Below are positions 2,664-29,324 of a stretch of DNA of 32,000 bases, one piece after another. Every line of letters begins with the position of its first letter. The stretch's first letter is position 1. Origin of the DNA: Aliinostoc sp. HNIBRCY26 (GTDB lineage: Bacteria > Cyanobacteriota > Cyanobacteriia > Cyanobacteriales > Nostocaceae). The DNA is taken from positions 5,056,278 through 5,088,277 of the forward strand of contig NZ_CP189852.1 in the NCBI RefSeq assembly GCF_050235535.1. Direction: 5' to 3'. The notes under the pieces are model-generated. The model was not told where the DNA came from. It saw only the letters and a program-made list of their open reading frames with translations, and ran no database searches. The position numbers and the translations under genes were made by a program.

Positions 2664-4067
2664 GGGAAGAAATGACAAACTAATTTTATTTAACGAGTAG
2701 GGGTGAGTGGAAGCAGGCAAAAGTTAAGAAAAAAGAATAGTTATTTAATCAGCTTTTTGCCTATGTCATGATTAGGGCTTTATTTACGCCTTGCTGTAAT
2801 AGGAACTAGAGCCTAAAGTCTAGTATGTTTACGGGCTTAACACCCCGCCACCGCTAACAGCACACTAGTCAACATCCCGCTACTGCTCACAGAACTCTAT
2901 ATATTTTTGCATTTTGTTTCCCTTTGCTGCCACCAATTTGCGGTTTTTCAGCAGTTCTATGTCTGTATGATTTCTGGAATCTACCTGATAGCAGATGTAT
3001 AACTAACCCATCATTCGTAGTTGTTAATTCAGTTAAACCTTGACTTACGTAATAATTCTTGATTTTAAAGTAACTAATATGGCTATATCTGAGTACGTAG
3101 TAGAGTAAATACTCAGATGAGTTCAAATTTAGCATTAAAAATATATCCAGTACGTAAGTCTGCAATATCTCGAATGTGACACAAACAATCCATATATATC
3201 AGGATTGCCCACAATTCCGGTAGATTACTAAAAGTAGTTTTGACTTATTCAAAGTGTTAATTCACAGGTTGCTGAAACAGTTAACAGTTGATAAGTAATA
3301 TTTAACAGCATACACAAAAGAATTTACAAAATTTAGATGCGGGACAAGCTATTTGTCTTACAAAAATTTTGATGCCCGATTTTTTTTACAAATTGCAACA
3401 TATCCCTACACAAATACAATTTTACTACATGGTGACTTACTATTTTGATGACTGCATTTACACAGATTAACTAGATTAGTTTTTGACTAGCTTTTCGTAG
3501 AAAAAGTTGTTTTTTATTAAAATTTTATATCTGTATAAAAGTATATAACTTTACAGTAAAATTTATAGCTTTTGTGTGAATTTCATAATGAAACGATGTT
3601 TTTACGCAAAAGCACGTACACATAGCTTGTATATGTGAATGTAAAAAATATGTATTTTTCGTTATTTATACTGATGCCTTAGACTTGAGTATTATTATCA
3701 TAATTATATGTATGTAATATTTGATTTTTTTGAAGTTTAAATCATACATTTATGATTGTTTTAAGCTGTCTTAAATAGTCACATATTTATAAAGAAAATA
3801 TTAATACGATTCCCTAAAAAATGTTCAGTATTTTCACTGTTTAAAAAATAAAAACCTAGATTATTTTTTAATGAACCCCAGTGAATATAATTCGGCTTTT
3901 ATTATGTTCATACACAGGTATTAAGAGGATATTAAGCTTTCAGAATTTTAGTTTTTTTGAGTTAAGAATGTATAGATATATACAGAGAGAATTGGAGAGG
4001 AATAAAGCTATAGATTTGGCAGAAATAAACTCAAAGATTAGCAAGAATAAAGGCGAAAAGCACAGCA

Positions 4068-13086: not shown

Positions 13087-15294
13087 TTGATGATCTCAGT
13101 ATCAATACCCACAGAGAACGCAGTTAGACAAGCGATCGCTATGCTTCAGTATCCCAATCTCGAACAAGCGTTAAAATATCACTTCGGTTATGATAACTTT
13201 CGTCCAGGACAACGGCAAATTATCCAAGACGCGCTGCAAAATCGGGACTTATTGATAGTGATGCCTACGGGTGGGGGAAAATCTTTGTGCTTTCAGTTAC
13301 CTGCACTGATGAAAACAGGACTGACTGTAGTGGTATCACCGTTAATTGCTTTGATGCAAGACCAAGTAGAAGCACTGCGAAATAATAATATCTCAGCTAC
13401 CTTCCTCAATAGTAGTTTGAACCCCTATCAAGTGCGATCGCGGGAAGATGCCATTGTCAATGGTAAGGTAAAATTACTCTACGTTGCCCCAGAAAAGCTG
13501 CTGAGTGAAAGATTTCTCCCTTTTCTGGATTTAGTTCATGAAAAGATTGGGATATCGATATTTGCAATCGATGAAGCACATTGTGTTTCGGAATGGGGAC
13601 ATGATTTTCGGCCAGAATATCGTCAGTTAAAGTTACTGCGGAAGCGTTACGCCAATGTTCCCATGCTTGCGCTGACGGCAACCGCCACAGATCGCGTCCG
13701 GTCTGATATCATTCAACAATTAGGCTTAAAACAACCCAGTATTCATCTTGCTAGTTTTAACCGGCAAAATTTATATTACGAAGTCCGCGCCAAAAGTAAA
13801 CAAGCTTACGCTGAATTATTAGAATTAATTCGTGACACGGAAGGCTCAGTCATTGTTTATTGTTTAACGCGTAAAAAGGTCGAAGAACTAACTTTTAAAC
13901 TGCAAAACGATAAGGTTTCCGTCTTACCTTATCATGCCGGCTTACCTGACGATGAACGGAGTAAAAATCAAACGCGATTTATTCGGGATGATGTGCGGGT
14001 GATGGTGGCGACTATCGCTTTTGGCATGGGAATTAATAAACCTGATGTGCGGTTAGTGGTGCATTTTGATATTCCCCGTAATTTAGAGAGTTACTATCAA
14101 GAATCAGGTAGGGCGGGAAGAGACGGCGAACCGTCGCGGTGTACAATCTTTTTCAGTTTTGCTGATATTAAAACCATTGAATGGAGTATTGACCAAAAAA
14201 CCGAACCCCAGGAACAATTGATTGCCAGACAACAACTCCGGCAGATGATCGACTATGCTGAAGGGACAGATTGTCGGCGGACAATTCAACTAGGTTATTT
14301 TGGCGAACGCTTTGCGGGTAATTGTGCTAACTGTGATAATTGTCGCCATCCCAAACCTTTAGAAGATTGGACAATTGAAGCCATGAAGTTTTTATCTTGT
14401 GTGGCGCGATGTAAAGAAAGATTTGGGATGTTACACATTATTGATGTGTTACGTGGGGCGAAAAAAGAGAAGATTATTCAATATGAGCATGATAAGCTTT
14501 CTACTTACGGTATAGGTAAAGATAGAACCGCAGATGAATGGCGAATTTTGGGGCGATCGCTTTTACATCAAGGTTTATTAGAACAAACTACCGATGGCTA
14601 TTCTGTACTGAAATTAAATGCGTTAAGTTGGGAAGTAATGCGCCGTCAACGCCAAGTTTTCTTATCTGTTCCTGTGGCGCAAAAAGTGCGGTTAGTCCCC
14701 GATAATCCCAAAGCTGAGATTGCAGAAGCATTATTACAGAGATTGCGATCGCTGCGTAAACAATTAGCCGATGAACAGTCTGTACCGCCTTATGTAGTCT
14801 TTCACGATTCTACTTTGAAATTAATGGCACAGGTACAGCCGAAAAACTTAGCGGAATTCGGTAAACTTTCTGGTGTAGGTAGTCATAAACTCGCCCAATA
14901 TGGGGAAAAGTTTCTCTCAGAAATTCGCGCCTATATTCAAGAACAAAATTCCACAGCTAAGACTGCTGAATATACACCCTCACTCAGCTTAGTTTCTGGG
15001 ACTGAATTACAGACATTACAGTTACATCAACAAGGCTTAAATATTGCTCAAATTGCTCAAAAACGCAATTTAAGCCCGACTACTATTGCTAGCCATTTAG
15101 AAAAACTCATCGAAAAAAATCAGCCAGTAGACTTAAATCAATTAGTCCCTTTGGAACATCAACAAAAAATTTGGCAAGTTTTAGAAGTGCTGGGTGATAT
15201 TCCCCTAACGCCAATTAAAGAACAGTTAGGCAATAGTTATACCTTTGATGAGATTCGCCTGGTGCGGGAAAAATGGCGACGACAACGTAAGTAG
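13087..15294 (+). CDS. recQ: ATP-dependent DNA helicase RecQ (helicase + Zn/RQC + HRDC + extra C-terminal HTH-like segment)
   Basis: Motifs present: FRPGQRQII, MPTGGGKSLCFQLPA, DEAHCVSEWGHDFRPEY, ATIAFGMGINKPDVR, YYQESGRAGRDG, Cys cluster CRR...CANCDNC, and HRDC-like LRKQLADEQSVPPYVVFHDSTL. The start is a TTG at 13087 or the ATG at 13090. Confidence 0.93.
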   Translation: MMISVSIPTENAVRQAIAMLQYPNLEQALKYHFGYDNFRPGQRQIIQDALQNRDLLIVMPTGGGKSLCFQLPALMKTGLTVVVSPLIALMQDQVEALRNNNISATFLNSSLNPYQVRSREDAIVNGKVKLLYVAPEKLLSERFLPFLDLVHEKIGISIFAIDEAHCVSEWGHDFRPEYRQLKLLRKRYANVPMLALTATATDRVRSDIIQQLGLKQPSIHLASFNRQNLYYEVRAKSKQAYAELLELIRDTEGSVIVYCLTRKKVEELTFKLQNDKVSVLPYHAGLPDDERSKNQTRFIRDDVRVMVATIAFGMGINKPDVRLVVHFDIPRNLESYYQESGRAGRDGEPSRCTIFFSFADIKTIEWSIDQKTEPQEQLIARQQLRQMIDYAEGTDCRRTIQLGYFGERFAGNCANCDNCRHPKPLEDWTIEAMKFLSCVARCKERFGMLHIIDVLRGAKKEKIIQYEHDKLSTYGIGKDRTADEWRILGRSLLHQGLLEQTTDGYSVLKLNALSWEVMRRQRQVFLSVPVAQKVRLVPDNPKAEIAEALLQRLRSLRKQLADEQSVPPYVVFHDSTLKLMAQVQPKNLAEFGKLSGVGSHKLAQYGEKFLSEIRAYIQEQNSTAKTAEYTPSLSLVSGTELQTLQLHQQGLNIAQIAQKRNLSPTTIASHLEKLIEKNQPVDLNQLVPLEHQQKIWQVLEVLGDIPLTPIKEQLGNSYTFDEIRLVREKWRRQRK

Positions 15295-16065: not shown

Positions 16066-19000
16066 TTACTCATCAATACGCTTGCTAATCGCCTGTACTA
16101 ATTCCTCAAATTCTCCCTCACTGTGAACGTCAGCAGTAAGGGTATTCATATCTTTAAGCGTGTTAGCTAGTCTTGGTAAGTATTGGCGAATTTCGTTGTA
16201 CGAGTCAATGTCATCTCTAAAACCTTCTAGGTAAGCAGCAGATACCTTTTTTAACTCATCATCAAATTTTTTAATTTTTTCTTCCCAATAGATGACATAC
16301 TGAAGTCGATCAATAGGGTCGTATATTTTTGCATCTGCTAATACAATTGGAAAAATGCGATCGCTAAACTTATGATTCTTAGCAATTTGCACCAGTTCAA
16401 ACATACAGTTGGGTGATTTCAAATATTTATCACTAATCACAGCAACTACACATTTACCACGCCCGATTTTTTCCATGAAGGCTTTAATCCGTTCTTTATA
16501 ACCTAAGTCTCGCTTATCTCTAATAATAGTGATACCTTTAGTTTGTAAAACTTCGTCTAAGTGATTAACATAGGTTCCACTTTCTCCACCCCAAGCATAG
16601 GAAATAAAGATTTCTTTCTCATATTCTTCTGATATCAGTTCAGGTATTTCCTTAAATATTTCTCGGTCGTTGCGTTGTCTTTCTACTCGTTGTGTAGGCG
16701 ATTCAATACCATCAAGTAATTCTTTGGGGTCGAAGGTTTCTGTTAAGCCTGGAGGAATATAGAATAAACCTTTTTCCTCATAAATTAGTAAGTTTTTGTA
16801 GTCTGCAATAATATTGGGATGCCCAGGTATGGGTACTTTCTCATCAGCTATTAAGCCTTTGATAGTTTTGTGAATTGCTTTAAATTCGGAACGAATTATT
16901 GCTAATAGTTCTCGTCTCGTGGATTTTTGACCACTAATAGAGATAAATATCTTTTGGTCTTCTCTGTCGCTTTTGACTAAGGCGCGGTTATTGCGATATT
17001 TCAACACAATTCCACTCCGCCACCAAGTTTGTCTATCTGCTAAGTGGTGCATCCTGACAATGAAGCGAGAAATAATACTGTTGGGAAGGACGTTGTAATG
17101 ATATTGGAAGGCTAAAACATTTTCCCATTCACCTGTGCTGGGTTCTGATTTGGGTAACAAATCAGGAATGAGGAAGCGATCATCACCTGTACCATTCTCT
17201 AACAGAAAGCAAAGTTCAAACTTTTTCATCATATCCACAATGAATAGTTGCTTGTTGCGGGGATAGCAAAGGTCATTGAGAATGCGGTTGAGTTGCTCTC
17301 GTCCTAAAATTCCCCGAAATTGTGTGAGTAAAAGATTATCATTGAGGATTTTGTAGACACCATTTGTTACCCATATGGGATTGAGGACGTTAGTATCTTC
17401 TAAGCGATCATCGTCACGAAAGTTGAGAACAATGCCAAGACGGTGCAATAATTCGATGAGTGTGGATTGATTGAGATCACCTGTAACCTGCTCTTTATGA
17501 CATAAATCTTGGTACTCTGTGTAAGAAATATAGTCTTTTTTCTTGTGTTTCATCGCTTCCAAGCGGGTTTTGACTTGAAACCAACTTAGGGGTAAAGGGT
17601 CATGAATATGTTCTATCTTTGCCAGTTCACGGGTGATAATTGACTGCAATTTTGGTATACCTCTTCCAGTGGCGCAGGAAACAGAGACAATATCTTTAAT
17701 GTTGTGGTATTTGTTGCGTAGTCCCTTTTGGTCGATGTCGAGGGATTGTTGATCAATTTTGTTGCCAACAATAATAATTGGCGAATCACCACCAAAGCTG
17801 TGAATAATTTTCAGCCAGTATTCTAGTTCGTTTTGTCGTTCATCTACACGCGCATCTAAGACTAATAAGTAGAGGCTGCGTTTGGTGAGAAAAAATTGGT
17901 GGGTGGCGTGCATGATTTCTTGTCCGCCAAAATCCCAGACATTGAGCCGGATAGGTTGATGATTAATAGTTACTTGCCAATTTTGGATGTTAATCCCTTC
18001 TGTTTTATTTTCGTGGGGGTCGAAAAGGTTATGAATCAGCCGTTTAACTAGAGAAGTTTTACCAACGCCACCTTGTCCTACCAGCAATACTTTAGCTTCG
18101 TTGAGGGGTTTTTCTTGTCCGGCTTGCAGAGAGAAATAATAGCTCAGAATCTTGGCTGGTTCGCCTAAATTGTCCCATGACTCGTCTAAGATTTCCGGCG
18201 GAATTTGCAACTGAGCATTGCCTTCACCGCGTAAATCTAGCTTTTCGAGTTTAGTTAGTTTCTGTATTTCTGACGGTAAATTGATCAAGTTATTATCTTC
18301 AAGAGCAAGAATTTGTAGATTTTTGAGTTGTCCAATTTCCGGTGGCAGACTCCTCAGTTGATTACTGCTGAGGTCGAGCGATTGCAGGTTGACCGATTGT
18401 CCAAATTCCGGTGGCAGACTGCTCAGTTGATTTCTTTCGAGGTTGAGCGATTGCAGGTTGACCAGTTGTCCAATTTCCGGTGGCAGACTGCTCAGTTGAT
18501 TACGACCGAGGGAGAGCGATTGCAGGTTGACCAGTTGTCCAATTTCCGGTGGCAGACTGCTCAGTTGATTTCTGCGGAGGTCGAGGGATTGCAGGTTGAC
18601 CAGTTGTCCAATTTCCGGTGGCAGACTCCTCAGTTGATTACTGCTGAGGTCGAGGGATTGCAGGTTGACCAGTTGTCCAATTTCCGGTGGCAGACTGCTC
18701 AGTTGATTTCTACGGAGGTCGAGGGATTGCAGGTTGACCAGTTGTCCAATTTCTGATGGCAGACTGCTCAGTTTATTAACACTGAGGGAGAGCGATTGCA
18801 GGTTGACCAGTTGTCCAATTTCTGATGGCAGACTGCTCAGTTGATTAATGCTGAGGGAGAGCGATTGCAGGTTGACCAGTTGTCCAAATTCCGATGGCAG
18901 ACTGCTCAGTCGATTCCCGTAGAGGTTGAGCGATCGCAGGTTGACCAGTTGTCCAAATTCCGGTGGCAAACTGTTCAGTTGATTACTTTGGAGATTGAGC

Positions 19001-19128
19001 GATCGCAGGTTGGTTAGTTGACCAATTTCCGATGGCAATGTTTTTAAGCCTTCGTAAGAAAGGTTTAATTTTGTCACATTGTCTTTGGCAGCTTTTGCGA
19101 TAACTTGCAGCAGTTCTTCGTTGGTCAT
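16066..19128 (-). CDS. LRR-Roc-COR-TIR protein (ROCO family GTPase with C-terminal TIR domain), paralogue 1
   Basis: 1020-aa ORF. aa 28-306 form 12 x 23-aa LRRs (LSSLPPEIGQLVNLQSLxLxxNQ). The Roc GTPase has G1 GQGGVGKT (351-358), G3 DFGGQ (399-403) and G4 NKID (456-459). A long COR-like region follows. aa 838-~935 are TIR-like (EIFISYAW..., DKYLKSPNCMFELVQI, Glu911), followed by an ~85-aa helical tail. Confidence 0.9.
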   Translation of the reverse strand: MTNEELLQVIAKAAKDNVTKLNLSYEGLKTLPSEIGQLTNLRSLNLQSNQLNSLPPEFGQLVNLRSLNLYGNRLSSLPSEFGQLVNLQSLSLSINQLSSLPSEIGQLVNLQSLSLSVNKLSSLPSEIGQLVNLQSLDLRRNQLSSLPPEIGQLVNLQSLDLSSNQLRSLPPEIGQLVNLQSLDLRRNQLSSLPPEIGQLVNLQSLSLGRNQLSSLPPEIGQLVNLQSLNLERNQLSSLPPEFGQSVNLQSLDLSSNQLRSLPPEIGQLKNLQILALEDNNLINLPSEIQKLTKLEKLDLRGEGNAQLQIPPEILDESWDNLGEPAKILSYYFSLQAGQEKPLNEAKVLLVGQGGVGKTSLVKRLIHNLFDPHENKTEGINIQNWQVTINHQPIRLNVWDFGGQEIMHATHQFFLTKRSLYLLVLDARVDERQNELEYWLKIIHSFGGDSPIIIVGNKIDQQSLDIDQKGLRNKYHNIKDIVSVSCATGRGIPKLQSIITRELAKIEHIHDPLPLSWFQVKTRLEAMKHKKKDYISYTEYQDLCHKEQVTGDLNQSTLIELLHRLGIVLNFRDDDRLEDTNVLNPIWVTNGVYKILNDNLLLTQFRGILGREQLNRILNDLCYPRNKQLFIVDMMKKFELCFLLENGTGDDRFLIPDLLPKSEPSTGEWENVLAFQYHYNVLPNSIISRFIVRMHHLADRQTWWRSGIVLKYRNNRALVKSDREDQKIFISISGQKSTRRELLAIIRSEFKAIHKTIKGLIADEKVPIPGHPNIIADYKNLLIYEEKGLFYIPPGLTETFDPKELLDGIESPTQRVERQRNDREIFKEIPELISEEYEKEIFISYAWGGESGTYVNHLDEVLQTKGITIIRDKRDLGYKERIKAFMEKIGRGKCVVAVISDKYLKSPNCMFELVQIAKNHKFSDRIFPIVLADAKIYDPIDRLQYVIYWEEKIKKFDDELKKVSAAYLEGFRDDIDSYNEIRQYLPRLANTLKDMNTLTADVHSEGEFEELVQAISKRIDE
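18211..19047 (-). repeat. 69-nt coding tandem repeat (12 LRR units) inside ROCO-TIR paralogue 1
   Basis: A 23-codon periodicity is visible in both the DNA and the protein. It also generates a stop-free antisense frame (ORF 18328..18756). Confidence 0.85.
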
Positions 19129-19173
19129 TTACATCGTTGAAATTGATTGTCTCACCTGTTTTTTCAATTCTGA
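19129..19173 (-). promoter_or_regulatory. Conserved 45-nt 5' leader shared by both ROCO-TIR genes, ending in ATG-TAA-ATG
   Basis: 42/45 nt are identical to 25493-25537. On the coding strand it reads TCAGAAYTGAAAAAAYAGGTGAGACAATCAATTTYAACGATGTAA followed by the main ATG. Confidence 0.4.
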
Positions 19174-19450
19174 CTTACGGATGTTGCAAACACCACAGTT
19201 ACATAAAGTACCGTCATTGTCTGCAAGAGAAACACGACAACTAGAACCGCGTACCTGATTCCGTAGAAGCGCAAACAGATTTGCTGCAATGGTAACACGA
19301 GGGTCACGTTGCTTTGAGCCGGAGTCAAAAGGCACTACGGAAAACCAGCTACAAAAATGAATTTAATTCAAAGGTATCAGCCATAGCAGCGATTAACAAG
19401 AAGTTTATGGAGTATAAAAGCTTTATTTTAACTGATAATGCTTGTTGATT

Positions 19451-19650
19451 GCTCGTGAACCTAATATACGATTCGTAAATCTAATTTCTGAGTCGTAAAT
19501 CTGATTTAGAACTCGTGAATCTAATTTCTGAGTTGTAAATCTGATTTAGAACTCGTGAATCTAATTTTTGAGTCGTAAATCTGATTTAAAACTCGTGAAT
19601 CTAATTTCTGAGTCGTAAATCTGATTGAGAACTCGTGAATCTAATTTGCG
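19451..19650. repeat. Tandem array of ten 20-bp units (five 40-bp A/B double units), no spacers
   Basis: Units are in exact 20-nt phase and alternate ACTCGTGAATCTAATTTCTG with AGTCGTAAATCTGATTTAGA. The first two units are degenerate. The array is non-coding (period not divisible by 3) and lies 320-520 nt upstream of ROCO-TIR paralogue 1. Confidence 0.9.
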
Positions 19651-19677
19651 GGATGTGCGGCTTGTTATTGAAACTCT

Positions 19678-19759
19678 GATCCCCCTAAATCCCCCTTAAA
19701 AACGGGGACTTTGATGTTTTTCTTGTTCCCCCCTTTTTTAAGGGGGGTTAGGGGGGATC
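19678..19759. repeat. 82-bp palindromic GATC-ended element (copy A)
   Basis: GATCCCCCTAAATCCCCCTTAAAAA...TTTTTTAAGGGGGGTTAGGGGGGATC. It is near-identical to 19888-19970, and a partial internal copy lies at ~19809-19840. Confidence 0.8.
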
Positions 19760-19887
19760 AAAACGATGCAGGATCAAGTGAGAAGACTTGTGTGTAGACT
19801 GTAGCTTCAAAAGGCGGACTTTGATGTTTTTTCTGGTTTCAGGCTACGGTGTACACACATCTGGGTGCTGGGTGGAAAATATGGTTT

Positions 19888-19970
19888 GATCCCCCTAAAT
19901 CCCCCTTCAAAAGGGGGACTTTGATGTTTTTTCTTGTTCCCCCCTTTTTTAAGGGGGGTTAGGGGGGATC
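19888..19970. repeat. 83-bp palindromic GATC-ended element (copy B), forms part of the left inverted repeat of the DUF559 unit
   Basis: It has the same arms and core as copy A. A reverse-oriented, interrupted copy lies at 20392-20543. Confidence 0.8.
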
Positions 19971-20015
19971 AAAACCATGCTTTCAAGCATTCTAGCTGGA
20001 TAAACACTAGCAAAT

Positions 20016-20402
20016 ATGACGAAAAACCTCAAAACTGGCGATTTTCATTTACCTTACAATCCAAAGCTTGTAGAAAGAGCAAAAGAACTTCGCAAAAACA
20101 TGACCCCAGCAGAAAAAAAGCTATGGTGTGAGTATCTGAGAGATTTTCAATTTCGGGTTTTAAGACAAAGACCAATTCATCATTTTATAGTTGATTTTTA
20201 CTGTCCTAATTTACAACTAGTTATTGAAATTGATGGGGATAGCCATTTTACAGATGAAGGTCAAGATTATGATCTGGAGAGAACGCAGATTCTGGAAGGC
20301 TATGGTTTAAGGGTTATTAGGTTTACGAATAGTCAAGTTTTAAATGAGTTTAATAGTGTGTGTCAGCAGATACAGGAGTTGATCCCTCCTAACCCCCCTT
20401 AA
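20016..20402 (+). CDS. DUF559 domain protein (Vsr/restriction-endonuclease-like fold)
   Basis: 128-aa ORF. The pattern LPYNPKLVERAKELRKNMTPAEKKLW...LRQRPI..FIVDFYCP...LVIEIDGDSH...D..R...L...G..VIRFTN..V is the classic DUF559 pattern. The last codons (IPPNPP*) are encoded by the flanking repeat arm. Confidence 0.85.
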   Translation: MTKNLKTGDFHLPYNPKLVERAKELRKNMTPAEKKLWCEYLRDFQFRVLRQRPIHHFIVDFYCPNLQLVIEIDGDSHFTDEGQDYDLERTQILEGYGLRVIRFTNSQVLNEFNSVCQQIQELIPPNPP

Positions 20403-20613
20403 AAATGGGGGAACAAGAAAAGAATTAAAGTCCCACACTCAATTCAATTCTTTGCACCATTTGTCATTTGAAAATGGGATAACAAAAAAACAATCAAAGT
20501 CCCCCTTTTTAAGGGGGATTTAGGGGGATCAAACCACATTTCCCACCCAGCACCCAGATATATATACACCATAAGGAGTAGAATCAAAATCACCCTTTTA
20601 AATCAGTTATCAG

Positions 20614-20778
20614 TTATCAGTTACCAGTTATCAGGCGTATACTTCGACAAGCTCAGTAACAGGTGGGGGATTTAGACCCGCCACCAACGCATTCCACCTG
20701 GAGGTGTGGTGTTTCACCAGGGATAAATAGATCACTGATAACTGTTTACTGTTCACTGTTCACTGTTAAATGGGGATT
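20614..20778. repeat. Inverted heptamer arrays (TCAGTTA x4-5 at 20614-20645; ACTGTT[TC] units at 20746-20778) bracketing a ~100-nt GC-richer core
   Basis: Read directly from the sequence. The core contains a TACTTCGACAAGCTCAGTA copy and two short GC hairpins (GGTGGGGG..CCCGCCACC and CCACCTGGAGGTGTGG). Confidence 0.7.
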
Positions 20779-21000
20779 TAGGCGCATCAAAATAACTGGC
20801 ACACGGTGTTACTTTTAACTCATATACCTTATCTAAACAGCAAATCTACTTATAACTGCTCAATCTAAATAATTAAAAAATTCTGTAGCTTTACTCAAGC
20901 TAGTACATCTGCTGATTGCGTACTCTAATGGTAGCTAAAGAACTAAGTGTTGATTAACATTAGTCTTTCATATTCACTACATTGCCAAAAGGAAAATCTT

Positions 21001-21387
21001 ATGTCGCAACGGAGACGAGACTCAATTGCACTGACTAAAGCTGAACGTCGGATTGAAAGATTGGAGACGATTAACTCTGACTTAGATTTTGGTAATGGCT
21101 TGTCAGTCGCTACTTACAAAAATATGGTTAGTGAGTTACGAGATAAGTTAGCGGCTTATAATCAAGCACGAGCAATAGTAGAGAAAACGCAGAATGCTTT
21201 ACTAGAAGCGGAACGTGCTTTAAATGATTATTCTGAGCATATGTTATTAGGTGTTGCGTCTCGCTATGGCAAAAATAGTGATGAATATGGGATGGCTGGT
21301 GGAACGCGCAAATCAGACCGCAAAAAACCACGTCCATCAGTAGCTAAGTCTATGGTAGTACCTGCGGAGTCAACAACAACGGCATGA
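21001..21387 (+). CDS. Hypothetical 128-aa helical/coiled-coil protein with basic C-terminus
   Basis: The ORF track starts at 20947. The ATG at 21001 is preceded by AAAAGGAAAATCTT and gives MSQRRRDSIALTKAERRIERLE... I recognise no family. Confidence 0.55.
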   Translation: MSQRRRDSIALTKAERRIERLETINSDLDFGNGLSVATYKNMVSELRDKLAAYNQARAIVEKTQNALLEAERALNDYSEHMLLGVASRYGKNSDEYGMAGGTRKSDRKKPRPSVAKSMVVPAESTTTA

Positions 21388-21394
21388 AATGTAA

Positions 21395-21421
21395 GTTGGG
21401 TTGCGCTGCGCTTAACTCAAC
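21395..21421 (+). terminator. Hairpin GTTGGGTT-N11-AACTCAAC followed by ATTTATCTT
   Basis: 8-bp stem (one G-U pair) 8 nt after the stop of the 128-aa gene, with a modest T-rich tail. Confidence 0.4.
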
Positions 21422-21453
21422 ATTTATCTTAAAAACTCAACAAAGATTTTGGT

Positions 21454-21479
21454 GTTGGGTTTCCTTACGTCAACCCAAC
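21454..21479. terminator. Hairpin GTTGGGTT-N10-AACCCAAC in the convergent spacer
   Basis: Perfect 8-bp stem 18 nt beyond the ROCO-TIR paralogue 2 stop. It belongs to the same repeat family as 21395-21421 and has no U-tract. Confidence 0.35.
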
Positions 21480-21496
21480 CCACATGACATCTAATT

Positions 21497-24400
21497 TTAC
21501 TCATCTATGCGGTTGCTAATCGCCTGCAATAATTCCTCAAATTCTGACTCGCTGTGAATGTCGGGGGTGAGGGTGTTCATATCTTTCAGCAGGTTGGTAA
21601 GTTCAGCGATGGTGTTGCGAATTTCGGTGTATTGATCAATTTCTTCTCGAAATCCCTGTAAATTAGCGGCGGAAACTCCTTTCATGGCTTCATCTAATTC
21701 TTTGATTTGGTCTTCCCAATGTTTAATATATTTAATTCTTGCAACAGGTTTATAAATTTGGGCATCTGCTAACACAATCGGAAAAATTCGGTCATAAAAT
21801 TCACCATTCTTAGCAATTTGCACCAATTCAAACATACAGTTGGGCGATTTTAAATATTTATCACTAATCACAGCAATTACACATTTACCCCGTCCAATCT
21901 TTTCCATAAATGCTTTAATGAGACCTTTATAACCTAAGTTTCGCTTATCTCTAATAATGGTGATGCCTTTAGTTTGTAAAACTTCGTCTAAGTGATTAAC
22001 ATAGGTTTCACTTTCTCCACCCCAAGCATAGGAAATAAAGATTTCCTTCTCATATTCTGATGTGGATGAATTAATCATTTTATGTTGTTCTCTCTCTTGT
22101 TCTAGTTGCTTTTGTAAACGCGTTACTTGAGGATTGATTTCCTCATATTCTCGTTCGGAGGTGAACATCACATCATCAATTAATCTACGCACATCTACCA
22201 TTTCATAGCTGTTTTCGCATTCAACTTGATAGCGACGAGCATTTAAGCGTTTGCGGAGAGATTCCAAAGAATAAAAATGAGGAATTGGCAGATTTATGCA
22301 CATTTCACAGTTACAGGGAACTAGAGTTTGATATTTTAAAGTTTCATAAGACTTGTGGATTTTTTCTAATTCATGGGTGACAACTGCCATAAGTTCTTTT
22401 TTGCGATTTCCGGCTACACGAATTTTAATTTCTCGCTGATTGTAATTTTCTATGACTTCGGCGCGAGTTTGGTCTTTGTGGAGAACAACGCCAGTTTTCC
22501 AAACGTGTTTTTGCCATTCAATCCAAGGGTGTGTTTCCACAATAAAACGGGTAATCATACCTTTCGGCATGAAGTCATAGGTGTAGCGAAGTATTAAATT
22601 GTTGGTGTCGTTCCAGGTATAGTCAGGTTGTTCAATGGAAAGTAATTGCGGCGCGATGTAAGTACCAGGACGGCTAGGAATTTCGTAACATAGTTTGAAC
22701 CGCATCATTAATTGCAGCAGTTCATCTTGCATTTGGGAATATTCATCATCTTGCCAAATATTTTTTAGGTCATCTTGTGTAAAACAACCAAGGTTTTGCT
22801 TGACAGTATCATTATCTAAAACTTTGTAAACCGCAGTAGTTCCCCATTCTGGTTTGAGGATGACGTAGTGTTTGAGTGTGGCATCATCTTGGAAGTGGAG
22901 AAAAACACCAAGGTCGTGTAAATAGCTACTCAACCGCAGCATATCTTTGCGGTCTGTTAAATTATTGACTCGGCAAAGATTGCAGTATTCTTCTTGGGTG
23001 ATGTAATTACGGGGATAGTTTTCTAATGCGGCTCTGACTCTCACCCAGAGTTTTGGTAGCGGTGTGCCAACATGGGGAAGTCTGCTGATGTAAAGCTGAA
23101 TTGCGTCTTTAATTTCTGCTAAACCGCGATTGGTGTCTAAGTTAGTAGCCAAAACTTCTTTGAGATTGGTAAACTCTCCACGTAACTGGCGTTCATTGAC
23201 TTCACATTGGCAGTCTTGTTTTTCGTTCTTGATAATCAGAACTGGACTTTTATCGCTGAGGAGTTCGACAACATTTAGCCACCAGTAGAAATCAGTGTTT
23301 TCTCTGCGGTCATCCGCTACTAAAGCATAAAGAGAACGCTTGCTGAGGAAAAATTGATGGGTTTGGTGATAGATTTCCTGTCCGCCAAAATCCCAGATAT
23401 TCACACGAAAGTCTTGACCGTTAGGTTGGGTAAAGTGCCAACGGATAACCTCTATACCTTCGGTTGATTCTTCATCTGGTTGGAGTTGGTAATTTTCGTC
23501 TTGGATTTTCTTGGCTAAAGATGTTTTACCTGCTCCCCCTTCGCCAACAATTAAGAATTTGGCTTCATATAAAGGTTCGGTTTCGGCTGGGTCTTGTACC
23601 TGGAAATAGAAATTAAGGATTTTGTTTACATCACCAGGATCTTCAAATATGTTCTTTGACCCCAAAATCTCAGGCGGAATGGGAACTGGATTTCTACGAA
23701 GGTCAAGTTTTTCCAGGTTTTTTAGTTGCCGAATTTCCGGTGGCAGACTGCTCAGTTGATTACTGCTGAGGTCGAGATATCGCAGGTTGACCAGTTGGAC
23801 AATTTCCGGTGGCAGACTGCTCAGTTGATTACTTCTGAGGTCGAGATATCGCAGGTTGACCAGTTGCCGAATTTCCGGTGTCAGACTGCTCAGTTGATTA
23901 CTTCTGAGGTCGAGATATCGCAGGTTGACCAGTTGCCGAATTTCCGGTGGCAGACTGCTCAGTTGATTATTGTAGAGGTGGAGCGTTTGCAGGTTGACCA
24001 GTTTTCCAAATTCCGGTGGCAGACTGCTCAGTTGATTTCTGCTGAGGTCGAGATATCGCAGGTTGACCAGTTGCCGAATTTCCGGTGGCAGACTGCTCAG
24101 TTGATTTCTGCTGAGGTCGAGCGTTTGCAGGTTGACCAGTTTTCCAAATTCCGGTGGCAGACTGCTCAGTTGATTTCTGCTGAGGTCGAGCGTTTGCAGG
24201 TTGACCAGTTTTCCAAATTCCGGTGGCAGACTGCTCAGTTGATTTCTGCTGAGGTCGAGCGTTTGCAGGTTGACCAGTTTTCCAAATTCCGGTGGCAGAC
24301 TGCTCAGTTGATTATTGTAGAGGTCGAGCGTTTGCAGGTTGAGCAGTTGGACAAATTCCGGTGGCAGACTGCTCAGTTGATTATTGTAGAGGTGGAGCGT

Positions 24401-25492
24401 TTGCAGGTTGACCAGTTTTCCAAATTCCGGTGGCAGACTGCTCAGTTGATTATTGTAGAGGTCGAGCGTTTGCAGGTTGAGCAGTTGGACAAATTCCGGT
24501 GGCAGACTGCTCAGTTGATTCTCTTGGAGGTGGAGCGTTTGCAGGTTGACCAGTTTTCCAAATTCCGGTGGCAGACTGCTCAGTTGATTCTCTTGGAGGT
24601 GGAGCGTTTGCAGGTTGAGCAGTTGGACAAATTCCGGTGGCAGACTGCTCAGTTGATTTCTGCTGAGGTCGAGCGTTTGCAGGTTGACCAGTTTTCCAAA
24701 TTCCGGTGGCAGACTGCTCAGTTGATTATTGTAGAGGTCGAGCGTTTGCAGGTTGAGCAGTTGGACAAATTCCGGTGGCAGACTGCTCAGTTGATTCTCT
24801 TGGAGGTGGAGCGTTTGCAGGTTGACCAGTTTTCCAAATTCCGGTGGCAGACTGCTCAGTTGATTCTCTTGGAGGTGGAGCGTTTGCAGGTTGACCAGTT
24901 TTCCAATTTCCGGTGGCAGACTGCTCAGTTGATTCTCTTGGAGGTGGAGTGTTTGCAGGTTGACCAGTTTTCCAATTTCCGGTGGCAGACTGCTCAGTTG
25001 ATTCTCTTGGAGGTGGAGCGTTTGCAGGTTGACCAGTTTTCCAATTTCCGGTGGCAGACTGCTCAGTTGATTATTGTAGAGGTTGAGCGATTGCAGGTTG
25101 ACCAGTTTTCCAATTTCCGGTGGCAGACTGCTCAGTTGATTAAATCTGAGGTCGAGCGTTTGCAGGTTGACCAGTTTTCTAAATTCCGGTGGCAGACTGC
25201 TCATTTGATTACTGCTGAGTTCGAGCGATTGCAGGTTAACCAGTTGGACAATTTCCGGTGGCAGACTGCTCAGTTGATTACTGCTGAGTTCGAGCGATTG
25301 CAGGTTGACCAGTTTTCCAATTTCCGGTGGCAGACTGCTCAGTTGATTACCCCAGAGGAAGAGCGTTTGCAGGTTAGTAAGTTGACCAATTTCCGGTGGC
25401 AGTGTTGTTAAGCCTTTGAAAGAAAGGTCTAATTCTGTCACATTGTCTTTGGCAGCTTGTGCAATAATTTGCAGCAGTTCTTCTTTGGTCAT
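21497..25492 (-). CDS. LRR-Roc-COR-TIR protein (ROCO family GTPase with C-terminal TIR domain), paralogue 2
   Basis: 1331-aa ORF. aa 28-602 form 25 x 23-aa LRRs. The Roc GTPase has G1 GEGGAGKT (650-657) and G3 DFGGQ (701-705), and the G4 position reads NEKQD (756-760). A COR-like region follows, then a Cys-rich module VPCNCEMC...C (1058-1107). aa 1149-~1245 are TIR-like with SPNCMFEL (Glu1222), followed by an ~85-aa tail. Confidence 0.9.
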   Translation of the reverse strand: MTKEELLQIIAQAAKDNVTELDLSFKGLTTLPPEIGQLTNLQTLFLWGNQLSSLPPEIGKLVNLQSLELSSNQLSSLPPEIVQLVNLQSLELSSNQMSSLPPEFRKLVNLQTLDLRFNQLSSLPPEIGKLVNLQSLNLYNNQLSSLPPEIGKLVNLQTLHLQENQLSSLPPEIGKLVNLQTLHLQENQLSSLPPEIGKLVNLQTLHLQENQLSSLPPEFGKLVNLQTLHLQENQLSSLPPEFVQLLNLQTLDLYNNQLSSLPPEFGKLVNLQTLDLSRNQLSSLPPEFVQLLNLQTLHLQENQLSSLPPEFGKLVNLQTLHLQENQLSSLPPEFVQLLNLQTLDLYNNQLSSLPPEFGKLVNLQTLHLYNNQLSSLPPEFVQLLNLQTLDLYNNQLSSLPPEFGKLVNLQTLDLSRNQLSSLPPEFGKLVNLQTLDLSRNQLSSLPPEFGKLVNLQTLDLSRNQLSSLPPEIRQLVNLRYLDLSRNQLSSLPPEFGKLVNLQTLHLYNNQLSSLPPEIRQLVNLRYLDLRSNQLSSLTPEIRQLVNLRYLDLRSNQLSSLPPEIVQLVNLRYLDLSSNQLSSLPPEIRQLKNLEKLDLRRNPVPIPPEILGSKNIFEDPGDVNKILNFYFQVQDPAETEPLYEAKFLIVGEGGAGKTSLAKKIQDENYQLQPDEESTEGIEVIRWHFTQPNGQDFRVNIWDFGGQEIYHQTHQFFLSKRSLYALVADDRRENTDFYWWLNVVELLSDKSPVLIIKNEKQDCQCEVNERQLRGEFTNLKEVLATNLDTNRGLAEIKDAIQLYISRLPHVGTPLPKLWVRVRAALENYPRNYITQEEYCNLCRVNNLTDRKDMLRLSSYLHDLGVFLHFQDDATLKHYVILKPEWGTTAVYKVLDNDTVKQNLGCFTQDDLKNIWQDDEYSQMQDELLQLMMRFKLCYEIPSRPGTYIAPQLLSIEQPDYTWNDTNNLILRYTYDFMPKGMITRFIVETHPWIEWQKHVWKTGVVLHKDQTRAEVIENYNQREIKIRVAGNRKKELMAVVTHELEKIHKSYETLKYQTLVPCNCEMCINLPIPHFYSLESLRKRLNARRYQVECENSYEMVDVRRLIDDVMFTSEREYEEINPQVTRLQKQLEQEREQHKMINSSTSEYEKEIFISYAWGGESETYVNHLDEVLQTKGITIIRDKRNLGYKGLIKAFMEKIGRGKCVIAVISDKYLKSPNCMFELVQIAKNGEFYDRIFPIVLADAQIYKPVARIKYIKHWEDQIKELDEAMKGVSAANLQGFREEIDQYTEIRNTIAELTNLLKDMNTLTPDIHSESEFEELLQAISNRIDE
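23687..25411 (-). repeat. 69-nt coding tandem repeat (25 LRR units) inside ROCO-TIR paralogue 2
   Basis: Near-identical 69-nt units. Three consecutive units are perfectly identical (24082-24288). There is also a 138-nt higher-order alternation. Confidence 0.9.
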
Positions 25493-25578: not shown

Positions 25579-26280
25579 CTAGGGTACAAAAGCCAACACA
25601 CCCACAGGAGAACCCGAACCACCACGTAATCTAAGAACTGCGATCGCTAATGTAGTACCTTTGGGCGGTAACTGGTCTAAATTGGTCAAATTTTCTAACA
25701 CAATACCAGACTTTGCCAAAACTAGACGGTTAGTTGCAAAGCTACTATCAATTCCAGGATCTACACCATGTGTATCAATTCCCACGCCTGCAATTTGCCG
25801 TTGATTGAGTAAAAATTCTGTAGCATAACTGCTAAACCCTGGAAAGTGCATCATCCCTCCAGCATCTTGATTTAAAAAGGCCTGTTTGTCTCCCCATTTA
25901 TGTTGCCAACCTGTGTAAAGTAGCACTACACTACCGCTTTCAATTTGGCCATATTCTCCTTCCCAAGCCAAAATATCAGCAATAGTTAAGGTGTAATCAG
26001 AATTATCAGCCGTAACTTGACTAATATCAATCACTATCGTCGGCAAAACCAATGATTCCGCAGGGTATTGATCAATACCGGCACCATACGTCAAAAAGCT
26101 ATTAGGGGCGTTAATATGAGTAGCACTATGTTCACCTAACGAAAAACCCCGCAAATAATAGCCATCATCAGGAATTTCCGCCACAGTTGTAAACTTTACT
26201 GGCGGATCACCTGGCCATTGAGGGATATATTCATCAATGACATGACTAAGGTGTATAACTCTGGAATAGGTGATTTGCAT
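25579..26280 (-). CDS. Cyclase-family protein (putative cyclase / kynurenine formamidase-like fold)
   Basis: 233-aa ORF. Its overall pattern resembles PF04199-type proteins (LSH.I....P.WPGDP, GEHSATHINAPNSF, LLYTGW, GVGIDTHGVDP). The signature motif is divergent (see findings). Confidence 0.75.
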   Translation of the reverse strand: MQITYSRVIHLSHVIDEYIPQWPGDPPVKFTTVAEIPDDGYYLRGFSLGEHSATHINAPNSFLTYGAGIDQYPAESLVLPTIVIDISQVTADNSDYTLTIADILAWEGEYGQIESGSVVLLYTGWQHKWGDKQAFLNQDAGGMMHFPGFSSYATEFLLNQRQIAGVGIDTHGVDPGIDSSFATNRLVLAKSGIVLENLTNLDQLPPKGTTLAIAVLRLRGGSGSPVGVLAFVP

Positions 26281-27923: not shown

Positions 27924-28002
27924 TATCAATTCGCAATTCATTAAGGCTGAATTTCGGAGAATGGTAAAGAGTAAACTTTTGTAAAGTAAGTTTAAGTAAA
28001 AT

Positions 28003-28066
28003 TTAGGGGCAAACTCCCCAGGTTCTTCTGCTTTTAGCAGATGTTCTTGAGGAAGTTGCCCCTAAT
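28003..28066 (+). terminator. Long imperfect hairpin downstream of ho1
   Basis: TTTAGGGGCAA (28003-28013) pairs with TTGCCCCTAA(T) (28056-28066). An inner TCTGC-tttta-GCAGA stem is present. There is no clear U-tract. Confidence 0.35.
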
Positions 28067-28364
28067 GTTTTGGGCTATATGATTGCTTTAGTTGAGTCGG
28101 AGTCAAAGAGATAATGTAATTATGTAATTACATTTACATTATTATTGAATATTTATATAAACGGCTCTTCCGTAGGTGTTATGCTAAAATTTAAACTCAA
28201 ATTAGGGATTTGCCTTTAAAATCAAGGGTTTCAGGCAGTTCAAGCCTAGATTTTCTCCCAAAATCTAAAACGTCAAGATTAAAAGCTGTCTTCCTTGCCC
28301 AGCAAAGGATATGAGCTAATTTATAGACATTTTCAGCATAACAAGTAATGAAGAACCATATAAA

Positions 28365-28784
28365 CTACATTTTAGGACTTACTTTGTCCATAAACTGACG
28401 AAAATTTTTATTGCATAATTTTTCATCAAGAAAATCAATTTCAGTTAAAATGTCTATAAACTGTGACAAATACCCATACTCTTGGATATTCTCGCTTTCT
28501 TGATTGACCTGTGTAGGTGAGCTTGTGTTTTTACAACCTAGAGTATAGTAATCAATACCGTTTTGTGCTTTTGATCTCAGCTTATCTATTTCACTTGATA
28601 ATTCTTTTATTTTTTCATCAAATGAATTAATAATGTTTAAAGGATTAAAGTTATTTTTTATAAGGATATTAAATACATCCTTGGGATTCAGAAAATTTGG
28701 AATTGAGTTAACTTCATTCTCTAGATATATCAACTTTTTTTTAATGTCATTCACTAATTTTTCATAAGCTGCATTTCTTTCCAT
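28365..28784 (-). CDS. Hypothetical 139-aa Asn/Lys/Glu-rich helical protein (AT-rich cassette, gene 2)
   Basis: ORF in a visibly low-GC segment with no TM helix and no motif I recognise. It lies 45 nt downstream of the 164-aa ORF on the same strand. Confidence 0.55.
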   Translation of the reverse strand: MERNAAYEKLVNDIKKKLIYLENEVNSIPNFLNPKDVFNILIKNNFNPLNIINSFDEKIKELSSEIDKLRSKAQNGIDYYTLGCKNTSSPTQVNQESENIQEYGYLSQFIDILTEIDFLDEKLCNKNFRQFMDKVSPKM

Positions 28785-28829
28785 CTTTTAGCCACTCACA
28801 AAAAATACTTATATTTTAATAAAATTAAA

Positions 28830-29324
28830 TTAAGAGCGAGAAAAAGGTAATAACTTTCTTAAAAAAGACGGTAGAAAATGCTTTTCGACGATTTCACTAA
28901 ATTGCCACTGTAAAACTGAATTTGAAATTTCTTTAATATTTCCTAATATTTGATTTATAAAATCAAGAGCTTGAATCCACAGATTGTCTCTCAAATTTTT
29001 ATATGTCTCATTATAACTTCTTTCAAGTTCTTCAAGTTTATCACGTAAATAGAACTGTTTTTTTTCTAGCTCATCTTTCTGCTCTTTTGAAATTAAATCT
29101 TGGATATCCTTCATTGTAGAGATTGTTTTTTCTACTTGATTAGCTTTTAACTTGCAGCGAACAATAGATTCTTTTTTGCTTTTTAGAGCATTATCTATTT
29201 CGAGAGCTTTGAATGTGAATTTATTTGTGTTATTGGATTTAACCTCTAATTCGTTCACACTGTCAACTTCTTGGCTTACTTGTGTGCTTAAAAATGTGAT
29301 TTTATCTTTCAGTTCGTTGTACAT
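28830..29324 (-). CDS. Hypothetical 164-aa coiled-coil protein (AT-rich cassette, gene 1)
   Basis: ORF with heptad-like K/E/L pattern. Its N-terminal segment LKDKITFLSTQVS resembles IKKKLIYLENEVNS of the downstream ORF. I recognise no family. Confidence 0.55.
   Translation of the reverse strand: MYNELKDKITFLSTQVSQEVDSVNELEVKSNNTNKFTFKALEIDNALKSKKESIVRCKLKANQVEKTISTMKDIQDLISKEQKDELEKKQFYLRDKLEELERSYNETYKNLRDNLWIQALDFINQILGNIKEISNSVLQWQFSEIVEKHFLPSFLRKLLPFSRS

Follow-up and report, generated by a model that had tools for sequence, protein, structure and literature searches.

Bacterial proteins that carry leucine-rich repeats (LRRs) in front of an AP-GTPase and a COR module have been described as 'conflict systems' by Kaur et al. 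(2021, eLife, Fig. 6D, PMC8195603), who find the TIR domain among at least 24 effectors at their C-terminus. These AP-GTPase-COR systems are characterized by rapidly evolving N-terminal LRRs, are found in multicellular and filamentous bacteria, and are present as several paralogues per genome (PMC8195603). A 2020 paper from the same group had introduced the EADs and noted the AP-GTPase/COR combination in cyanobacteria (PMC7159879). Here, a 32,000-nt stretch of DNA from Aliinostoc sp. HNIBRCY26 (the window) is analysed, in which two neighbouring genes, ROCO1 and ROCO2, encode proteins of identical architecture with a TIR domain in the effector slot. In analogy with the systems of Kaur et al., the effector slot varies in relatives, the number of LRRs goes from 0 to 24 and two paralogues are present, as counted within the window. 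In other words, proteins of this kind have already been predicted as a conflict system and do not constitute a new category. A preliminary description of the window had mentioned that domain surveys list such fusions, and TIR is indeed named explicitly (PMC8195603); the same description rated their novelty too high, as the architecture was already on record. The survey of Kaur et al. is computational, with no locus-level or experimental analysis. What appears to be new here, from the comparison of the sequences, is the chimeric, core-swapped ROCO1, the NEKQD form of the G4 motif in the ROCO2 clade and the replacement of a Trp by Asn in the TIR motif, all of them seen in the present locus and not derived from that survey.

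Both open reading frames (ORFs) lie on the minus strand and run from ATG to TAA, and their position and length agree with the preliminary description, which also located the P-loop, DFGGQ, EIFISYAW and SPNCMFEL motifs, the residues K357/K656 and E911/E1222 and the corresponding codons exactly. The existing annotation names the products just 'COR domain-containing' (WP_427158347.1) and 'leucine-rich repeat domain-containing' (WP_427158351.1). The parts of the two genes are the following.

16066-19128, minus strand: ROCO1, LRR-Roc-COR-A-COR-B-TIR, 1020 aa, WP_427158347.1 (ORF, Pfam, exact database match)
18199-19077, minus strand: ROCO1 LRR array, aa ~18-310, ~12-13 units of 23 aa (Tandem Repeats Finder, TRF; register analysis)
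18326-19037, minus strand: regular part of the ROCO1 LRR array, a 69-nt tandem repeat (TRF)
~18318 to 19173, minus strand: block of ROCO2-type DNA in ROCO1 (83-97% nucleotide identity to ROCO2 and to the gene of Nostoc sp. CMAA1605)
17752-18093, minus strand: ROCO1 Roc GTPase, aa 346-459, with P-loop K357 (codon 18058-18060), DFGGQ and G4 NKID (Pfam, motifs, PDB)
16711-17592, minus strand: ROCO1 COR-A (aa 513-658) and COR-B (aa 670-806) (Pfam)
16627-18317, minus strand: ROCO1 core, aa ~271-834, of a Roc-COR lineage other than that of ROCO2 (identity comparison; no CMAA1605 DNA match)
16069-16626, minus strand: ROCO1 TIR cassette, aa 835-1020, with putative catalytic E911 (codon 16396-16398) (Pfam TIR_2)
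21497-25492, minus strand: ROCO2, LRR-Roc-COR-A-COR-B-TIR, 1331 aa, WP_427158351.1 (ORF, Pfam)
23663-25441, minus strand: ROCO2 LRR array, aa ~18-610, ~25-26 units (TRF, unit table)
23735-25402, minus strand: 69-nt tandem repeat of ROCO2, with blocks of identical units (TRF)
23222-23560, minus strand: ROCO2 Roc GTPase, aa 645-757, with P-loop K656 (codon 23525-23527) and DFGGQ (Pfam)
23213-23227, minus strand: ROCO2 G4 motif NEKQD, aa 756-760, non-canonical (G4 census; alignment with MbRoco2 and CtRoco)
22172-23056, minus strand: ROCO2 COR-A (aa 813-951) and COR-B (aa 964-1107) (Pfam, PDB matches)
21500-22057, minus strand: ROCO2 TIR cassette, aa 1146-1331, with putative catalytic E1222 (codon 21827-21829) (Pfam, PDB, AlphaFold2, Foldseek)

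In both proteins every domain scores above its Pfam gathering threshold, with E-values far beyond chance, and the shared order of LRR, Roc, COR and TIR noticed in the preliminary description stands. Specifically, LRR_8/LRR_4 are found in the two proteins, and the scores for ROCO1 and ROCO2 are, respectively, 116 and 84 bits for Roc, 140 and 167 bits for COR-A, and 117 and 162 bits for COR-B. The P-loop reads GQGGVGKT (K357) in ROCO1 and GEGGAGKT (K656) in ROCO2, and DFGGQ is found at aa 399 and 701, G1 and G3 being intact in both. The best PDB matches of the two cores are MbRoco2 and CtRoco (3dpu, 6hlu, 8r4b), followed by LRRK2, with E-values of 3e-92 (MbRoco2, 4wnr) and 4e-82 (CtRoco) for ROCO1 and of 1e-58 and 2e-44 for ROCO2. 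Both proteins belong to the Roco family, with a Ras-like Roc domain directly followed by COR-A and COR-B. They have in common with CtRoco and MbRoco2 the LRR-Roc-COR order and a similarity ranging from E 3e-92 to 1e-44; these two characterized proteins, however, have no recognisable enzymatic effector after COR, whereas here a TIR domain follows COR-B. ROCO2 differs from them also in its G4 motif, which departs from NKxD. The motif of ROCO1 is the canonical NKID, and NKxD is kept throughout the ROCO1-type clade. NEKQD occurs in 86 of the 120 ROCO2-type orthologues, the others having NEKQ[N/G/E], with the final Asp replaced in ~15 of the 120, and in the alignment it stands out of register with the NKID of MbRoco2 or CtRoco. 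This comparison suggests an altered or relaxed nucleotide specificity in the ROCO2 clade.

The C-terminal domain is a TIR domain, by sequence as well as by predicted fold. It follows COR-B directly, on a charged linker of ~30-40 residues, and matches TIR_2 at aa 840-959 of ROCO1 (55 bits) and aa 1151-1261 of ROCO2 (51 bits), against a cut-off of 28, in addition to Pfam TIR. EIFISYAW lies at aa 839 of ROCO1 and 1150 of ROCO2, and SPNCMFEL contains E911 and E1222, respectively. When searched against the PDB with phmmer, the domain retrieves at the top only TIR domains of plant TNL receptors, namely RPV1 (4.5e-7), Roq1, ADR2, RUN1, RPP1, SNC1 and L6, and SPNCMFELVQI is aligned with the plant S(R/T)WCL(D/E)ELVKI. 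In particular, by counting in the printed sequence alignment, query E89 (ROCO2 E1222) falls on Roq1 E86, which we take to be the published catalytic Glu of that receptor. The Glu is invariant in 56 of 56 cassettes, in line with the catalytic context that had been proposed for it, and S.NCM[FY]EL is conserved in ~117 of the 120 ROCO2-type orthologues. An AlphaFold2 model of the cassette, built from the same 56 sequences and with the putative catalytic Glu placed by sequence alignment, reaches a pLDDT of 84.2 and a pTM of 0.81 and has the Glu on helix 84-95, after strand 71-76 (strand C). The check by Pfam and predicted structure foreseen in the preliminary description comes out in favour of a TIR: among the PDB structures retrieved by Foldseek, plant TIR domains, mostly of TNL receptors, occupy the first 29 places, and AbTir, TLR1, SARM1, TcpB and the SPARTA TIRs come next, many TIR structures being matched with a probability of 1.00.

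The same cassette is by no means restricted to Roco proteins. Used alone as a query it retrieves 1,117 proteins, and its profile matches 1,231 representatives of 50%-identity clusters at E <= 1e-30. Taken together with those of the Roco proteins themselves, the matches come mainly from Nostoc, Fischerella, Coleofasciculus, Microcoleus, Anaerolineae and similar taxa, in keeping with the multicellular or filamentous hosts of the AP-GTPase-COR systems. At 63-89% identity it is found in EAD1-, EAD7-, EAD8- and EAD11-TIR and in REC-TIR proteins, and it also occurs in NACHT-NCH2-TIR, NACHT-HEAT-TIR, NB-ARC-TPR-EAD8-TIR, TIR-NB-ARC-TPR, TIR-nSTAND1-WD40, TIR-nSTAND1-FGE-sulfatase, TIR-SH3-KAP, TIR-TIR-AAA_35 and WD40-Roc-TIR arrangements. 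In relatives of the ROCO1 clade, the slot after COR-B can alternatively be taken by EAD7 (P0162), by an MCU-like transmembrane (TM) end (P0189 and P0156) or, in P0123 and P0137, by a hydrophobic tail. Such an exchange of cassette and slot is what marks an effector as interchangeable among receptors with an NTPase switch, and the presence of the cassette on NACHT, NB-ARC, nSTAND1 and KAP NTPases and on EAD adaptors strengthens the analogy with NLRs, in accordance with the sensor, switch and TIR logic put forward in the preliminary description. As a side observation, MCU-like refers here to the TM end of the mitochondrial calcium uniporter family, and the tail of P0123 and P0137 is made of two hydrophobic helices; either element may be a membrane-pore effector in place of the TIR.

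The reading that we favour, with a probability of roughly 0.6, is that, as far as sequence comparison can tell, the product of either gene is an NLR-like sensor complete in one polypeptide and belongs to the AP-GTPase (Roco) type of bacterial conflict system. The N-terminal LRR solenoid would provide the surface for ligand recognition, the Roc-COR tandem would operate as a nucleotide-dependent conformational and oligomerisation switch, and the plant-type TIR at the C-terminus would be the effector. Upon binding of a foreign (phage) or danger ligand, the LRR would be freed from Roc-COR, with a change of nucleotide and oligomeric state; the TIR domains would then be gathered into an active assembly, in which NAD+ would be consumed or turned into ADP-ribose (ADPR)-type products, leading to growth arrest or death of the infected cell in the filament. 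Ligand sensing, the direction of GTP gating, the NADase chemistry and the immune outcome are the elements of this scheme that we infer. TIR enzymes need self-association to complete their active site, as in SARM1, plant resistosomes and AbTir filaments. Because the TIR domain stands after COR-B, the dimerisation module, we propose that a ligand on the LRR would change the state of Roc-COR and thereby bring the TIR domains together. A relative of solved structure, CtRoco, is a compact COR-mediated dimer without nucleotide and an open monomer when bound to GTP, with an LRR that swings on the LRR-Roc hinge (PMC11052575, PMC5714945). The monomeric GTP state argues against a simple rule by which GTP equals activity.

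ROCO1 and ROCO2 would act as independent units. A conserved small partner gene downstream was considered and rejected, the downstream ORFs being unrelated in six homologous loci, and so was a recurrent pairing of type-1 and type-2 Roco-TIR genes, as those of P0128 and P0183 are solitary. With no conserved partner gene and with solitary type-1 genes elsewhere, each gene therefore looks autonomous, and the ROCO1-ROCO2 pairing looks strain-specific.

With plant TNL receptors (Roq1, RPP1, RPS4, RUN1/RPV1 and L6) the two proteins share an LRR sensor, an NTPase switch and a TIR domain, the latter being closest to the TNL TIRs both in sequence and in predicted fold. The order of the domains is different, TIR-NB-ARC-LRR with a STAND ATPase in plants versus LRR-GTPase-COR-TIR with a Ras-like GTPase here; moreover, the tetrameric resistosome belongs to the plant receptors, and the Trp of their WCLxEL is an Asn in the present proteins. 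The bNACHT and Avs/STAND anti-phage proteins are likewise single polypeptides joining sensor, switch and effector, and chassis of the NACHT, NB-ARC and nSTAND1 types can carry the TIR cassette of the ROCO proteins. They are, however, defined by their STAND NTPase, whereas the ROCO proteins have no NACHT or NB-ARC match in Pfam, which bears out the earlier suggestion that a Roc-COR GTPase takes the place of the STAND ATPase. By analogy, ROCO1 and ROCO2 would thus be NLR-like in their working, without being members of the NLR/STAND family. Thoeris consists of a ThsB-type TIR protein and of a ThsA effector gene (SIR2 or Macro/TM plus SLOG); no ThsA-like counterpart was found among the scanned neighbours of the ROCO genes, and PADLOC gave no Thoeris match for the TIR. 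Among eukaryotes, the LRR-ROCO proteins of brown algae, with hypervariable LRRs, have been proposed as candidate immune receptors, and a TPR-ROCO-TIR protein is found in the red alga Chondrus crispus (PMC11378527). The algal proteins differ in being eukaryotic and in owing their diversity to exon shuffling (PMC11378527).

If the immune reading is true, the switches of bacterial NLR-like receptors would include Ras-like GTPases besides STAND ATPases. In addition, prokaryotic Roco proteins are the bacterial counterparts of LRRK2, the kinase of Parkinson's disease, for which the control of output by Roc-COR is debated, and a Roco protein with a TIR output would offer a simple, measurable read-out of the Roc-COR switch, such as NAD+ consumption and cell arrest. 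The locus represents an experimental entry to Roco function, as it combines an effector that can be assayed, two cores between near-matching ends, an atypical G4 and a Trp-to-Asn change beside the putative catalytic Glu. Furthermore, the reuse of a plant-like TIR on NACHT, NB-ARC, KAP and EAD chassis bears on the bacterial origin of eukaryotic TIR immunity.

Support for an accessory behaviour of these genes comes from their variable position, their presence in one or two copies and the variation in the number of LRRs. The arrays have a period of 69 nt, with 10.3 copies and 88% matches in ROCO1 and 24.2 copies and 90% matches in ROCO2 (TRF). In a strict 23-aa register 11 and 24 units are counted, which become ~12-13 and 25-26 with the degenerate first and last units and are consistent with the 12 and 25 repeats of the preliminary description. 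Across 71 full-length orthologues the count of LRR motifs goes from 0 to 16, and the 24 of the ROCO2 of the window make it the largest array. The variation within the arrays is focused on positions 5, 7 and 8 of LxxLxLxxN and on positions 18-20, and blocks of a small number of unit types recur along the ROCO2 array, a sign of recent unequal crossing-over. Two plus-strand ORFs, at 18328-18756 (142 aa) and 23726-25411 (561 aa), were set aside as artefacts, being the stop-free antisense of the 69-nt repeat.

As far as position is concerned, a ROCO-TIR gene stands beside the cyclase gene in just 1 of 80 cyclase-anchored Nostocales loci, that of Nostoc sp. CMAA1605, the nearest relative, and the homologues of N. 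edaphicum, Nostoc TCL26-01, N. commune, Fischerella PCC 9431 and Nostoc C117 are found in unrelated neighbourhoods. The survey across Nostocales called for in the preliminary description has thus revealed no conserved core position. CMAA1605 keeps the outer synteny (heme oxygenase, 126-aa ORF and cyclase; RecQ, PG-binding and sucrose synthase) and has a single ROCO2-type gene of 1171 aa versus the two genes of the window. Taken from the sequence, the TIR match, the alignment of the Glu, the lack of conserved synteny and the variation of copy and LRR number all support the interpretation first put forward, and none of the refuting conditions set for the computational side was borne out.

Several points weigh against the immune receptor reading. 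In the literature search, no experimental work came up on Roco-TIR proteins or on a defence role of bacterial Roco proteins, as the preliminary description had anticipated, and in a 2026 Nature survey of bacterial STAND receptors GTPase, Roco and LRR are unmentioned. No recognised defence genes flank the pair, the other genes of the window being housekeeping by Pfam and PADLOC. Of the 'accessory or defence islet' proposed beforehand, the accessory part is supported by the variable position, copy number and LRRs, and the defence neighbourhood is not. No system model of PADLOC-DB v2 is matched by the ROCO proteins, so that the defence-finder check proposed at the outset, run with PADLOC on the window, gave only weak matches in the TIR region (bSEFIR at 1e-8, PDC-S66 and SAVED_TIR), and the sole defence-type match outside the ROCO genes is a weak mREase_II-like one for the DUF559 gene. 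EAD7-TIR and Roco-EAD7 genes were never adjacent in the three loci examined. At the level of the TIR, the Trp that precedes the Glu by 4 residues in the plant WCLxEL is replaced by an invariant Asn (N85 in the 56 cassettes), the Asn of SPNCMFEL being aligned with the Trp of RPV1, Roq1 and ADR2. A Trp at -4 from the catalytic Glu is present also in SARM1 (W638) and AbTir (W204). Because of this substitution, the chemistry may differ from that of the characterised NADase TIRs. As for the switch, CtRoco is monomeric when GTP-bound whereas TIR NADases need self-association, which makes the 'on' nucleotide state ambiguous, and the non-canonical G4 makes the guanine specificity of ROCO2 uncertain. 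Finally, the repeated unit types of the ROCO2 array fit recent slippage as well as selection.

Part of the genomic evidence would be accommodated also by endogenous switches of signalling or regulated cell death in the filament, responding through the same LRR-Roco-TIR logic to stress, senescence, developmental or kin-recognition cues and not to phage, an interpretation that we hold to be unlikely. Strong conservation (60-93% identity) is combined with a nearly universal presence of the family among filamentous cyanobacteria, the flanking genes of the window, like those of several relatives, are of the housekeeping kind and include none known for defence, and one homologue lies beside a cluster for NAD biosynthesis and salvage; moreover, Kaur et al. 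tie conflict systems to the multicellular habit and to apoptosis-like processes (PMC7159879, PMC8195603). However, an unconserved position and a copy and LRR number that change among close relatives are typical of conflict genes, some homologues are near transposases, toxin-antitoxin genes and OLD-like or CHAT genes, and the TIR cassette is common to the NACHT, NB-ARC and KAP chassis. NACHT proteins are linked to anti-phage defence in a preprint (bioRxiv 10.1101/2022.07.19.500537), and KAP proteins in PMC8195603.

A similarly small chance is assigned to a TIR domain that does not deplete NAD+ as an executioner and rather produces a Thoeris-like signal nucleotide, acts on nucleic acids or serves only as a scaffold for oligomerisation. 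The invariant Asn near the catalytic Glu would fit such a role, as would the similarity to the plant TNL TIRs, the closest folds. Plant TNL TIRs make signalling molecules rather than merely depleting NAD+, and for some plant TIRs a 2',3'-cNMP synthetase activity on nucleic acids has been reported. In the same direction go the presence of a TIR-dsDNA complex (7x5l) among the Foldseek structural matches and the long, conserved helical extension at the C-terminus of the cassette (helices 116-171 and 177-197 of the AlphaFold2 model). A signalling enzyme is nevertheless disfavoured by the lack of a linked ThsA-like or other receptor gene and of a conserved downstream partner ORF in the loci scanned, and the strict conservation of the Glu and of its motif argues for catalysis over pure scaffolding.

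The two genes of the locus are not copies of each other. The amino acid identity between ROCO1 and ROCO2 is 42% in Roc and 34% in both COR-A and COR-B, versus 78% in the N-cap, 73% in the LRR array and 77% in the TIR. In ROCO1, Roc-COR is 34-42% identical to ROCO2 but 75-83% identical to type-1 relatives, whereas its TIR is 77% identical to that of ROCO2 and 53-66% to the TIRs of its own core clade. In the DNA, the identity of ROCO1 to both ROCO2 and the CMAA1605 orthologue amounts to 83-97% over a stretch that begins 45 nt before the ATG and extends to the end of the matching LRR array; across the last LRR, Roc, COR and the linker (~aa 271-834), ROCO1 is unrelated to ROCO2 and without a match in CMAA1605. 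The TIR-coding DNA has a patchy likeness, a mosaic of ROCO2-like and divergent tracts along a sliding window of identity, and the 3' flank is 94-100% identical to that of CMAA1605. ROCO1 is thus a chimera of three parts, made of ROCO2-type LRR and TIR ends around a Roc-COR core of another lineage, in effect a natural swap of the GTPase core between alike sensor and effector ends. Of the 'tandem pair' of the preliminary description, the adjacency and the same domain order stand, and simple tandem duplication was rejected in view of the 34-42% identity of Roc-COR versus 73-97% for the LRR and TIR ends. The ROCO2 family comprises more than 100 Nostocales clusters, 60-93% identical over Roc-COR-TIR and all of LRR-Roc-COR-TIR order. 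The ROCO1 core clade (57-79% identical) is broader, with members in Dolichospermum, Anabaena, Cylindrospermum, Acidobacteria, Anaerolineae and Methanosarcinales, the last and other non-cyanobacterial members being at ~60% identity, and is mostly devoid of TIR.

One could regard ROCO1 as a by-product of recombination between genes that contain repeats, a chimera of recent date that would not have been selected for any function, ROCO2 being the sole working gene. Its singleton state, a core whose best database match is at 79%, its absence from the assemblies of the two nearest relatives, the three-part mosaic with joints in repeated or homologous segments and the solitary state of other type-1 Roco-TIR genes, whose pairing does not recur, are in keeping with this view. 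It is nonetheless very unlikely in our opinion, as the frame of 1020 codons is intact and retains the TIR Glu together with G1, G3 and a G4 of canonical form, and the joints fall on the limits between domains (the last LRR and the COR-B/TIR linker), hence a well-formed protein product. Furthermore, natural fusions of a type-1 core with TIR exist elsewhere (P0121, P0122, P0126, P0128 and P0183), P0128 being an independent case with a TIR 84% identical to that of ROCO2. As an aside, the P0128 protein (L092:2531-5182) has a LexA-type winged-helix DNA-binding domain between LRR and Roc, and its gene adjoins those of an IS605 TnpB, a ParE-like toxin and a CHAT-TPR protein.

The least probable arrangement, and a most improbable one, is a heteromeric sensor/helper pair like the plant NLRs RPS4/RRS1, with a composite TIR site and two-key control, in which the homogenised LRR and TIR ends would permit co-assembly and the two different Roc-COR cores, one a canonical GTPase and the other with a degenerate G4 and possibly an altered nucleotide specificity, would give control; if true, a TIR immune receptor that is both paired and gated by a G protein would be seen for the first time, and prokaryotic LRRK2 homologues would gain a function.

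The remaining features of the locus lie between and around the two genes.

19129-21496, no strand: spacer between ROCO1 and ROCO2, with a tandem repeat, the DUF559 unit and a small ORF (TRF, repeats, Trichormus match)
19453-19647, in the spacer: 20/40-nt tandem repeat, ~10 and 4.4 copies (TRF)
20016-20402, plus strand: DUF559 (Vsr/homing-endonuclease-like) gene (Pfam DUF559 1.8e-29; PHROG HNH/homing endonuclease matches)
19845-19947 and 20471-20573: inverted repeats around the DUF559 gene, 103 nt, 84% (repeat search)
21001-21387, plus strand: 128-aa ORF with a probable start at MSQRRRD; 146 aa in the ORF list, from 20947 (conservation only beside the Trichormus orthologue)
13087-15294, flank: RecQ gene (Pfam scan)
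25579-26280, flank: PF04199 cyclase-family gene (Pfam scan)

The repeat-rich setting between recQ and a cyclase-family gene, with a mobile-element-like unit, had been recognised in the preliminary description, and the unit corresponds to the DUF559 gene with its 103-nt inverted repeats. Sucrose synthase, heme oxygenase and GroEL genes are found farther away in the window. The promoter and terminator scans gave matches at chance level, and the Rfam and tRNA scans gave none.

Trichormus sp. M33_DOE_039 has a ROCO2 orthologue of 91% identity at a different genomic site, followed by the same 128-aa ORF (94%), the DUF559 gene (95% aa, inverted) and short tandem repeats; positions 20768-24298 of the window match this locus (L095) at 90%. 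The presence of the same 3' features beside the Trichormus orthologue identifies the spacer as an old 3' flank of ROCO2 and not as a recent insertion. A clean insertion of ROCO1 and spacer into a single ancestral gene was therefore not sustained, the spacer being native to that orthologue. The one-copy and two-copy states differ by recombination through the TIR-coding repeat, and the single copy of CMAA1605 could equally be a deletion by TIR-TIR recombination. Being inverted with respect to the Trichormus orthologue, the DUF559 unit (19845-20573) looks like a small invertible or mobile element, and its inverted repeats are made of palindromic CCCC(T)nAAGGGG...GATCAAA units, of which the spacer contains several further occurrences. 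The 128-aa ORF has no Pfam, PHROG or PADLOC match; its N-terminal part is coiled-coil-like and its C-terminus basic, and it does not accompany the family in general.

The neighbourhoods of the homologues are diverse, some with a transposase, PIN/Phd genes, an OLD-like ATPase or a caspase-like protein and others with housekeeping genes. In Nostoc sp. C117 (L020:~1400-4579) a ROCO2-type gene is located upstream of the cyclase orthologue, at a distance of ~5.4 kb and in the same orientation, which may be a loose residual linkage or a coincidence. In Nostoc commune NIES-4072 (L090:13671-23237) the ROCO2-type homologue is ~1.4 kb from the NAD biosynthesis and salvage cluster, which comprises NadE, a NUDIX-NrtR regulator, an NMNAT-like gene and NAPRTase, with NAD kinase farther on; the vicinity of such a cluster to a putative NAD-consuming TIR is intriguing, but may be due to chance. 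In Fischerella sp. PCC 9431 (L091:2670-6590) a protein of 1306 aa with Peptidase_C14 (caspase-like) and DUF7379 domains is encoded 3.4 kb upstream of the ROCO2-type homologue and may represent another conflict-type gene nearby. Lastly, the G+C content of the window is markedly low at 3001-4000 (0.27) and 28001-29000 (0.30), versus ~0.40-0.47 elsewhere.

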